A stretch of 23,844 bases of DNA, taken from the IMG/VR virus record IMGVR_UViG_2531839668_000007; one strand, given 5' to 3'. Below, one piece after another: positions 9,566 through 10,324 of this stretch (position 1 is its first letter; every line of letters begins with the position of its first letter). The notes beneath the pieces were generated by a model. The model was not told where the DNA came from and did no database searches. It saw only the letters and a program-made list of their open reading frames with translations. The stretch is from a virus (Duplodnaviria > Heunggongvirae > Uroviricota > Caudoviricetes). The position numbers and the translations under genes were made by a program.

Positions 9566-10324
9566 TTAAATTCTGGTCCTTACAATATCAACCTGAAGAT
9601 TCTTATCTTGTGCTGATTGATAAATGACAAACCTTTTACTACCTGCATTGAAAGAAGTAGACAAAACCAGACAATTATCATAACGAGCAAGAACATAATA
9701 CCAACCATCATTATAATTAATCATTTCATATTCTTTCTTAAACTGTGGTTTGTAATATCCTGTCAGAAATGAAAAAAGCCAGAAATATGCCACAAAAGCA
9801 ATCATCACAATCTCAAAAAAATGTTTTTTTATAAATGGCTTATCATAGAAGCATGATACCGATAAAAATCGCCCATAAGATCTTATCGAAATTGTAACCG
9901 CCAGCGCAATCGCTGCTGACAGTAGCAAAAGAGGTACCTGAATCTTTTGTCTCAATATAGAAAACTCAATAATTGCCGGCACAAACAATAATTCCACAGC
10001 AAAATAAAGGCGAAATACATTTAGCTCTTGCATAGAATGTTTTCTTTTCACTGCGAAAAAGAATACAACACCAATACCCCAACCGATAAGAAATATAGCA
10101 ATGACGATAACTGCAAAAAATAAACTTCTGGCAACATCATCAACACCTGCACCTACAATCCACCATGGGAAGCCGTAGTAAAAAGAAGTACCCCATCCAT
10201 AGAAATAAGCACTCCCCCATCCAAGGCATCCCATGTAGGCAATAAAAAGTGAAGAACTCCTGAGCAGCGCACCATCCTTCATAACCACCCCAATACAAGA
10301 TGATAACATTGGCTTACAACTCAT
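9566..10324 (-). CDS. AT-rich multi-pass membrane protein of unknown function (moron between Q and the lysis cassette)
   Basis: 252-aa ORF; an alternative ATG at 10280-10282 (preceded by a GGGTGG Shine-Dalgarno-like sequence) gives 238 aa. About five strongly hydrophobic, aromatic-rich segments, then a ~50-aa hydrophilic C-terminal tail. Markedly AT-rich compared with flanking phage genes. No family recognised. Confidence 0.6.
   Translation of the reverse strand: MSCKPMLSSCIGVVMKDGALLRSSSLFIAYMGCLGWGSAYFYGWGTSFYYGFPWWIVGAGVDDVARSLFFAVIVIAIFLIGWGIGVVFFFAVKRKHSMQELNVFRLYFAVELLFVPAIIEFSILRQKIQVPLLLLSAAIALAVTISIRSYGRFLSVSCFYDKPFIKKHFFEIVMIAFVAYFWLFSFLTGYYKPQFKKEYEMINYNDGWYYVLARYDNCLVLSTSFNAGSKRFVIYQSAQDKNLQVDIVRTRI

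Follow-up and report, generated by a model that had tools for sequence, protein, structure and literature searches.

The DNA analysed here is a 23,844-nt stretch of IMG/VR virus record IMGVR_UViG_2531839668_000007 (the window). Between a Q-type late antiterminator gene and the lysis genes of a lambdoid prophage remnant, it carries an open reading frame (ORF) that we refer to as the target gene (9566..10282, -). We find that the target gene is a genuine gene under purifying selection, and that it is the first gene of a cassette of ~1.45 kb that starts at the late terminator tR' and moves as one unit among lambdoid prophages with different Q genes. By its matches, the product is a member of the family known as PF27470/TfpB, as the STM1630 family and as PHROG 1521. 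We propose, with low confidence (a probability of about 0.4), that this protein is a lysogenic-conversion factor, changing the cell envelope in a way that benefits a host living in association with animals.

An earlier sequence-only reading of this DNA had recognized no family for the product, and this no longer holds. PHROG 1521 matches the protein over the full length of its 222 positions (E 2.1e-154), the precomputed annotation of P0001, a protein of 100% identity, and of all homologues recovered includes PF27470 (PF27470.1, named TfpB), and the newest RefSeq annotations label identical E. coli genes 'STM1630 family protein'. Our Pfam-A and NCBIfam scans of the protein gave no match; the Pfam copy scanned predates PF27470. 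The protein is 100% identical to CPT_434_68 of phage 434, a 'putative membrane protein' followed there by CPT_434_69 ('TciB'), and to its Sakai counterpart ECs_0816. At the DNA level, the locus shares 99.2% identity with the phage 434 late region and 99-100% with hundreds of E. coli chromosomes. Of the complete E. coli genomes, about 22% have a DNA match to the target gene, and diverged alleles occupy up to four places in a single genome. The family is nevertheless narrow, since an exhaustive HMMER search of 1.84 billion representatives recovered just 55 clusters. Its hosts are Enterobacteriaceae, Pasteurellaceae, Neisseriaceae and Moraxella; to our knowledge, all organisms named as hosts are animal-associated. 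The sequence and the family were already in databases, and morons in the slot from Q to the lysis genes are an established kind of element. Very little has been published on the family, and literature searches on ECs0816, PF27470, and tfpB with Moraxella found no functional study.

The target gene was delimited from the ORF, the starts of its homologues and its family matches. The longest ORF runs from 10324 to 9566 on the reverse strand (9566..10324, -; 252 codons), and the database start, in RefSeq and in the phage 434 record, is at 10309. Almost all full-length homologues are 237-238 aa long, and their first residue corresponds to M15, encoded by the ATG at 10282; this methionine opens the ORF in all twelve genomic contexts compared. 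A conserved promoter-like block contains, or ends shortly before, the two ATGs further upstream (10324 and 10309). Because of the homologue starts and the position of the upstream ATGs, we placed the start at 10282, which is most likely the true one and would give a protein of 238 aa (residue numbers below refer to this form). Thus the gene that the sequence-only reading had placed at 9566-10324 stands as a real and conserved gene, most likely with a later start.

Selection was examined in 12 copies drawn from the prophage cassette, E. albertii, a prophage resembling those of Shiga toxin (Stx) phages, C. rodentium, an enterotoxigenic E. coli (ETEC) plasmid, an iro island, Shigella pINV, Klebsiella, Yersinia and two Salmonella. 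All 12 were intact, with 237-238 codons. The ratio of nonsynonymous to synonymous substitution rates (dN/dS) against the window copy was 0.05-0.19, and dN in codons 1-60 was 3- to 6-fold below that of the remainder. Because the copies are intact, of the same length and of low dN/dS across these contexts, we conclude that the ORF is a real gene maintained by purifying selection. Shortened database entries of the family are mostly partial at contig ends, and a few genuine disruptions exist (for example, P0103). The earlier concern that the ORF might be disrupted in most relatives can therefore be set aside, as can homology to a housekeeping membrane protein, of which none was found. The gene is still intact even in the badly degraded window prophage, which lacks immunity, replication and head genes.

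The base composition of the target gene is distinct from that of the surrounding phage genes, as is characteristic of morons. Over 9566..10282 its GC content is 36.1% (30% at third codon positions), compared with 46.2% for Q, 47.2% for the holin gene, 51.4% for the endolysin (lysozyme) gene and 46.9% for the whole window. The earlier description of an AT-rich gene between a Q-like gene and a lysis cassette (36.1% against 46-51% GC) thus holds, with PF06323, PF04971 and PF00959 identifying the flanking genes.

Homology breakpoints define a mosaic 'moron' cassette at 8998..10447. Phage 2B8 and locus L003 match exactly this interval at 97% identity, with unrelated flanks. Among 80 IMG/VR prophage loci that encode an identical target protein, homology was lost at ~10420 in 47 and at ~8990 in 32. 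The Q gene upstream of the cassette is of the Q82 type in the window and in phage 434, and a different one in phage 2B8; diverged alleles follow a Stx-phage-type Q in one case and a Yersinia Q in another. The record of phage 434B matched only 98 bases of a 2.6-kb Q-cassette query and so is without the cassette, which phage 434 has. Because of this absence, the target gene appears dispensable for the phage lacking it.

Within this region, a promoter scan and its position relative to the Q82-type Q point to a pR'-like late promoter (TTGCAA-17-TATACT; 10482..10510, -) that overlaps the end of Q. An intrinsic, tR'-like terminator (10427..10448, -), found by a terminator scan and annotated in phage 434, separates Q from the cassette and forms its upstream recombination boundary. 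A putative sigma-70-like cassette promoter (10320..10349, -), read from the sequence at consensus level, has a -35 element TTGACT (10349..10344) and an extended -10 element TGtTATGAG (10328..10320), with a predicted start near 10313. The block TTGAC(T/G)...TGtTATGAG is kept 5' of the gene in E. albertii, Escherichia sp. and the ETEC plasmid, where the flanks are unrelated, and is only partly kept in C. rodentium. The second cassette gene (9322..9480, -; PHROG 1470, E 2.5e-17; RefSeq 'DUF3927 family protein') encodes a 52-aa, two-helix, DUF3927/TciB-like peptide. The 3' part of the cassette (9106..9311, -) gives a sub-threshold match to Rfam RF02076 (small RNA STnc100; 37.7 bits against a gathering cutoff of 47, E 7.8e-7) over the full length of the model, positions 1-206, and ends in an intrinsic terminator called by the terminator scan (9117..9135). 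This stretch after the DUF3927 gene could be a prophage small RNA or a structured 3' untranslated region of the cassette.

As read from these elements, the layout of promoter-like block, target gene, DUF3927 gene and terminator is that of a moron. The idea that this is a cargo slot has gained ground: the mosaic cassette starts from tR' behind different Q genes, and an allele with 68% identity lies downstream of Q, a methyltransferase gene and two tRNA genes. The cassette resembles lambdoid morons and late cargo such as stx, bor, lom and nanS-p in its slot between Q/tR' and the lysis genes, in its deviant base composition, in what may be a promoter and a terminator of its own (both consensus matches), in being present or absent among close relatives, and in being dispensable. 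It differs from them in its product, a predicted polytopic inner-membrane protein rather than a secreted toxin, an outer-membrane lipoprotein or an esterase.

Neither of two leads from the second cassette gene survived. The DUF3927 gene is present in 79 of the 80 identical-allele loci, but none of the diverged alleles has it as a neighbour, and STM1630 is followed by a small ORF with no relation to it, so that it is not an obligate partner of the target gene. The name 'TciB' is no functional clue to the target protein either: the 'TciB-like' label of PHROG 1470 belongs to the downstream gene at 9322..9480 and was inherited from phage P1 TciB/DUF3927 by homology alone.

Hydropathy agrees with an AlphaFold2 model (48-sequence alignment; mean pLDDT 77, pTM 0.70) on five long helices (residues 3-36, 47-79, 89-111, 116-136 and 155-181), and in the model these are followed by a tail of ~57 aa with five beta strands at 187-232. 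Phe, Trp and Tyr make up 21% of the residues. The sequence-only reading had described about five aromatic-rich transmembrane segments with a short soluble tail, and the protein indeed has this form. Members from Pasteurellaceae, Neisseria and Moraxella share the architecture of an N-terminal motif, five helices and a C-terminal YY.L...F beta domain. The target protein carries the family motif AY..G..GW..AY.YGWG...YYG.PWW..V..G.D..ARSL, and A25, Y26, W30, G37, W40, A51, R52, S53 and L54 are invariant in the 48-sequence alignment, together with G71, G175, Y195, Y196 and F218. Conservation peaks in helix 1, in the loop after it and where helix 2 begins; variability within the family is highest in helices 3-4 and the loops between them.

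Charge distribution suggests how the protein is oriented. The family-wide count of Lys plus Arg is 1.2 in the N-terminal tail, 1.7 in loop 2-3 and 3.2 in loop 4-5, compared with 0.1 and 0.3 in the other two loops. By the positive-inside rule, the N-terminal tail and loops 2-3 and 4-5 would be cytoplasmic, giving a five-helix inner-membrane protein with its N terminus in and its C terminus out. The periplasmic side would then present the nearly invariant Trp/Tyr/Gly-rich loop (residues 21-46), loop 3-4 and the five-stranded C-terminal beta domain (187-232). In the 48-sequence alignment, the invariant positions include no Asp, Glu, His, Lys or Cys, and we therefore expect binding rather than catalysis.

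Searches for relatives of known function were uniformly negative. A profile search of all PDB sequences with the target family gave 0 matches at E <= 10, Foldseek of the model against BFVD gave nothing below E 0.4, and structural searches of BFVD and the PDB found no match, known exclusion proteins included. When ten C-terminal domains were taken separately and scanned with Pfam, nothing consistent emerged. When each of the 48 relatives was scanned against Pfam at E <= 5, DUF2070 appeared in 12 members (best E 0.36), UbiA in 4 and bPH_10 in 2, which we regard as scattered noise. PADLOC models yielded no family at E <= 0.1 for the target protein or its two neighbours. A lipid A- or lipopolysaccharide (LPS)-modifying enzyme (PAP2/LpxT, EptA, ArnT or an acyltransferase) was also considered and rejected, there being no family match and no invariant catalytic-type residue. 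Thus, for superinfection exclusion, abortive infection and envelope modification, the functions offered by the sequence-only reading, we obtained no positive evidence: no PADLOC match, no conserved catalytic residue and no relative of known function.

The genomic contexts of diverged alleles provide a different kind of evidence. On ETEC plasmids, an allele with 59% identity to the window protein lies divergent from eltAB and near STb, flanked by insertion sequence (IS) elements. On Shigella pINV an allele (57%) lies between the end of mxi-spa and virA/icsA and occurs in 106 Shigella plasmid records (PLSDB). A Salmonella allele (46%) has sseJ (408 aa) on one side and, on the other, an ORF of 133 aa taken by us to be steB, and because of this position we identify it as STM1630. 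An allele (57%) on chromosomes of the extraintestinal pathogenic E. coli type adjoins iroB/iroC and a bor remnant, and a Klebsiella allele (54%) shares an islet with an STb-like gene. In C. rodentium, an allele with 66% identity is adjacent and divergent to a split lpxR. The 68% allele is found in rare Stx-phage-like prophages, in the order Q, methylase, tRNA-Met, tRNA-Lys and target gene, convergent with lpxR, which is followed by an iraM/pmrD-like gene and a nanS-p-like SASA esterase gene. The position between Q/tRNA and the SASA esterase is where Stx phages such as 933W carry stx. In this prophage type (locus L135, 4970..6504; likewise L134, L136 and L137), a second lpxR allele with 73% identity stands together with the iraM/pmrD-family gene.

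In Mannheimia, Neisseria and other Pasteurellaceae, members with 21-32% identity are stand-alone chromosomal genes, and conserved neighbours of the Pasteurellaceae and Neisseria family loci were looked for and not found. In Mannheimia, a gene for a 76-aa zinc-ribbon membrane protein (UPF0547, with weak similarity to the TcaA N terminus) starts 8-24 bases after the family member (L034, 6744..6974; L037, 6752..6982), and it is possibly an operon partner specific to that genus.

STM1630 of Salmonella Typhimurium (SL1344_1560) is among the closest known systems. STM1630 resembles the target protein in its 46% identity over the full 238 aa, its length and its conserved N-terminal motif, and in being AT-rich, horizontally acquired and beside virulence genes (sseJ and the neighbouring ORF taken as steB). 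It differs in being chromosomal rather than prophage-borne, in its upstream region, in having no DUF3927 partner and in its co-regulation: STM1630 belongs to a 123-gene cluster co-regulated with SPI-2, the pag genes, ugtL and lpxO (PMC2639726). STM1630 has been described with its own transcription start site and -10 box, and in the ST313 strain D23580, single-nucleotide polymorphisms disrupt this -10 box and macrophage expression is lower (bioRxiv 10.1101/689075, 10.1101/450098). These regulation data would fit expression of the target gene without induction. In a screen, deletion of STM1630 gave 1.6-1.7-fold hypermotility (PMC4219756). The gene is without an S. Typhi orthologue, and in SL1344 its counterpart SL1560 had almost no transposon insertions and was called 'required' (PMC3632133). 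We do not read this as essentiality, since STM1630 deletion mutants showed no significant growth difference in LB (bioRxiv 10.1101/689075).

These observations underlie our proposal of an envelope-altering lysogenic-conversion factor, at the probability of about 0.4 given above. With low confidence, we favour that the target gene does not serve phage replication or lysis. A lysogen would transcribe the gene from its own putative sigma-70 promoter, and on induction, Q-dependent read-through would boost its transcription, as with Shiga toxin genes. The protein would sit in the inner membrane with its Trp/Tyr/Gly loop and beta domain facing the periplasm, where it would act by binding another envelope component. 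A link to LPS or lipid A remodelling, or to tolerance of host membrane-active agents, may be part of this function. One clue is lpxR, which is linked to three alleles with similar divergence (66-68% for the target gene and 73-75% for LpxR) in two relative orientations. The earlier hint from the nearby lpxR is strengthened in this respect, but the neighbour is not obligatory.

Several points weigh against this proposal. Neither experiment nor homology connects the family with a function, and the cassette promoter is a consensus-level call only. Within 5 kb, lpxR is absent from 49 of the 80 identical-allele prophage loci; the convergent tfpB-lpxR arrangement is rare, being full length in 2 of 5426 genomes; the C. 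rodentium lpxR, as noted, is split; and the Pasteurellaceae, Neisseria and Moraxella members have no lpxR neighbour. The 'PmrD-like' neighbour, considered as a lipid A clue, is weakened by its RefSeq annotation as IraM. Adjacency to virulence genes may merely reflect the clustering of AT-rich horizontally acquired DNA. In Salmonella, STM1630 deletions were without an intramacrophage replication defect (bioRxiv 10.1101/689075), and hypermotility was not among the phenotypes confirmed by clean deletions (PMC4534456).

It is possible, though we doubt it, that the target gene instead provides superinfection exclusion or another single-gene anti-phage function, with the prophage-made protein blocking entry of incoming DNA or triggering abortive infection. 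A prophage cargo gene with an inner-membrane product and its own promoter-like element would suit such a role, as would several diverged alleles, with a single E. coli genome offering up to four places. Variation is much faster in the middle helices and the periplasmic tail than at the N terminus, which contact with changing phage proteins might produce, and the Pasteurellaceae copies, standing alone at chromosomal sites that vary, are scattered in a way reminiscent of defence genes. However, the low dN/dS gives no sign of diversifying selection overall, and neither PADLOC nor the fold searches matched a known exclusion protein. The toxin plasmids of ETEC, Shigella pINV and the SPI-2-co-regulated Salmonella sseJ islet, all of which keep copies, are also untypical settings for defence genes.

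We consider it unlikely that STM1630/TfpB proteins form a new class of non-enzymatic inner-membrane factor that docks via its invariant periplasmic loop onto a conserved envelope machine; such a class could have been spread by phages, plasmids and islets among animal-associated Proteobacteria. One candidate target is the LPS/lipid A remodelling pathway, in which the protein might, for example, release the outer-membrane deacylase LpxR from latency; LpxR is a latent enzyme. A second could be the assembly platforms of type IV pili or type II secretion.

We regard it as quite unlikely that the target protein assists pilin-type machinery, in type IV pili or type II secretion, as an accessory factor that binds pilins, pseudopilins or the inner-membrane platform. 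Moraxella TfpB, which gives PF27470 its name, shares about 29% identity, the same helix pattern and the C-terminal beta domain with the target protein; it differs in its 261-aa length, with a longer C-terminal end, and in its gene's place within the invertible pilin segment rather than in a phage. At least four Moraxella species have a type IV pilin gene on either side of the family member, the two facing opposite ways. A 191-nt inverted repeat flanks the family member. The ETEC allele stands beside the genes for heat-labile toxin (LT), and LT leaves the cell via a type II system. In one of its two orientations, the Moraxella gene is directly downstream of the expressed pilin gene, which is the place of known pilin accessory genes (PMC11841053). 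Pilin linkage is nonetheless confined to Moraxella, with no adjacent pilin gene in the enteric, Pasteurellaceae or Neisseria loci. The accessory proteins TfpY, TfpZ and FimB-like proteins are non-enzymatic and are proposed to bind pilins (PMC11841053); the target protein resembles them in size (235-245 aa), in N-terminal membrane helices and in a periplasmic C-terminal domain containing beta structure. As described in that paper, TfpY/FimB-like proteins have three helices and a large periplasmic alpha/beta domain, unlike the five helices and 57-aa beta tail of the target protein. No experiment addresses TfpB, and no paper in the searched literature discusses Moraxella TfpB or gives TfpB a function.

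Other ORFs lie between the Moraxella pilin genes. Those of 295-303 aa were tried as TfpY-like relatives and proved to be Rpn-family nucleases unrelated to the target profile. In locus L030, such genes (1120..2031 and 4500..5387; TIGR01784, E 1e-33) lie among silent and expressed pilin copies near the tfpB-family gene.

Finally, it is very improbable that the target gene encodes a phage late function, a Q-dependent membrane protein that tunes lysis timing or virion release as an antiholin-like or membrane-conditioning factor: as the first gene after pR'-tR' and before the holin gene it must be transcribed lytically by Q-modified RNA polymerase, but the cassette is missing from the 434B record, the gene is intact in prophage remnants without structural genes, plasmid and chromosomal relatives have no lysis genes nearby, and a separate, complete holin and endolysin pair is present. 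A holin or antiholin identity was rejected directly. Such proteins have about 60-150 aa and 1-4 helices and are encoded beside the endolysin, whereas the target protein, with 238 aa and five helices, is larger than known holins, and its gene is separated from that of the genuine PF04971 holin by ~860 bases and a terminator.

The window itself matches the chromosome of E. coli O157:H16 strain 98-3133 (NZ_CP051001.1, 2367206-2391051, reverse strand) at 99.99% identity. Its prophage is a heavily degraded lambdoid remnant adjoining ybhC, the insertion site of Sp3 in Sakai and of CP-933K in EDL933. The remnant retains int/xis, exo, pphA, lpxR, Q, the holin and endolysin genes and pieces of packaging and tail genes. 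Also retained are nleB2, nleC and nleH1, which encode type III effectors and stand at one prophage end (nleH1-1, nleC and nleB2; 1..3740). A fusion of bet and ninG has its junction at ~13950, and the entire immunity and replication region has therefore been deleted. As a result, the window Q gene is probably without early transcription feeding into it.

On the cassette's upstream side lies the Q82-type late antiterminator gene (10494..11183, -; PF06323, E 1.7e-91; also annotated in RefSeq and phage 434), which is 89.7% identical to the Q record of phage 82. Divergent from the unit running from Q to the target gene is lpxR (11658..12617, +; PF09982, E 6.8e-40; RefSeq annotation), encoding a lipid A 3'-O-deacylase; with 39% GC it is a separate AT-rich cargo gene. 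The very AT-rich intergenic stretch between lpxR and ylcG/Q (11200..11650; GC 28-35%) resembles a regulatory region of horizontal origin that may be bound by H-NS. Directly after pphA (ninI) there is an N-terminal fragment of a lambda-type Q gene (12762..12833, -), and the block of lpxR, ylcG, Q82 and cassette has therefore replaced an earlier Q module. Downstream of the cassette are genes for a class II (pin)holin (8485..8700, -; PF04971 and annotation) and a SAR lysozyme, the endolysin (7988..8485, -; PF00959 and annotation).

Both ends of the cassette show further features. At the upstream end, the pR'-like promoter and tR' would yield a short terminated late-leader transcript (10418..10510, -), like lambda 6S RNA or StxS, and the same stretch has a weak Rfam match to STnc240 (28 bits, E 0.25). 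At the downstream end, a short ORF (9076..9186, -) beginning MRTSLMLFPSIIFLVSSGC... crosses the terminator hairpin; it shows a signal like that of lipoproteins and is preceded by GGGAGG, a strong Shine-Dalgarno sequence; in phage 434, a different frame is annotated there as a 62-aa 'putative membrane protein'. The point 8997/8998 is a recombination scar. Here phage 434 begins a gene for a 616-aa SASA-family carbohydrate esterase (nanS-p-like), which is absent from the window, and phage 2B8 has two IS elements inserted at exactly this point, with none in the window.

Relative to the searched literature, what is new is the assembled pattern of genomic contexts, with a family that reaches from E. 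coli prophages to Shigella virulence plasmids, ETEC LT/STb plasmids, the Salmonella sseJ locus and Stx-phage-like prophages. To this we add strong purifying selection across these settings, a self-contained cassette and, on the predicted topology, a sharply conserved periplasmic motif; together, selection, cassette and motif make the family a well-defined and cheap experimental target. If the target gene had no measurable effect, it would be one more ordinary hypothetical cargo gene. If docking onto an envelope machine were true, it would represent an unrecognised mechanism of lysogenic conversion in the same slot as Shiga toxin. More generally, if the gene affects the envelope, host interaction or phage susceptibility, it would provide a new lysogenic-conversion function for the prophages of pathogenic E. 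coli.

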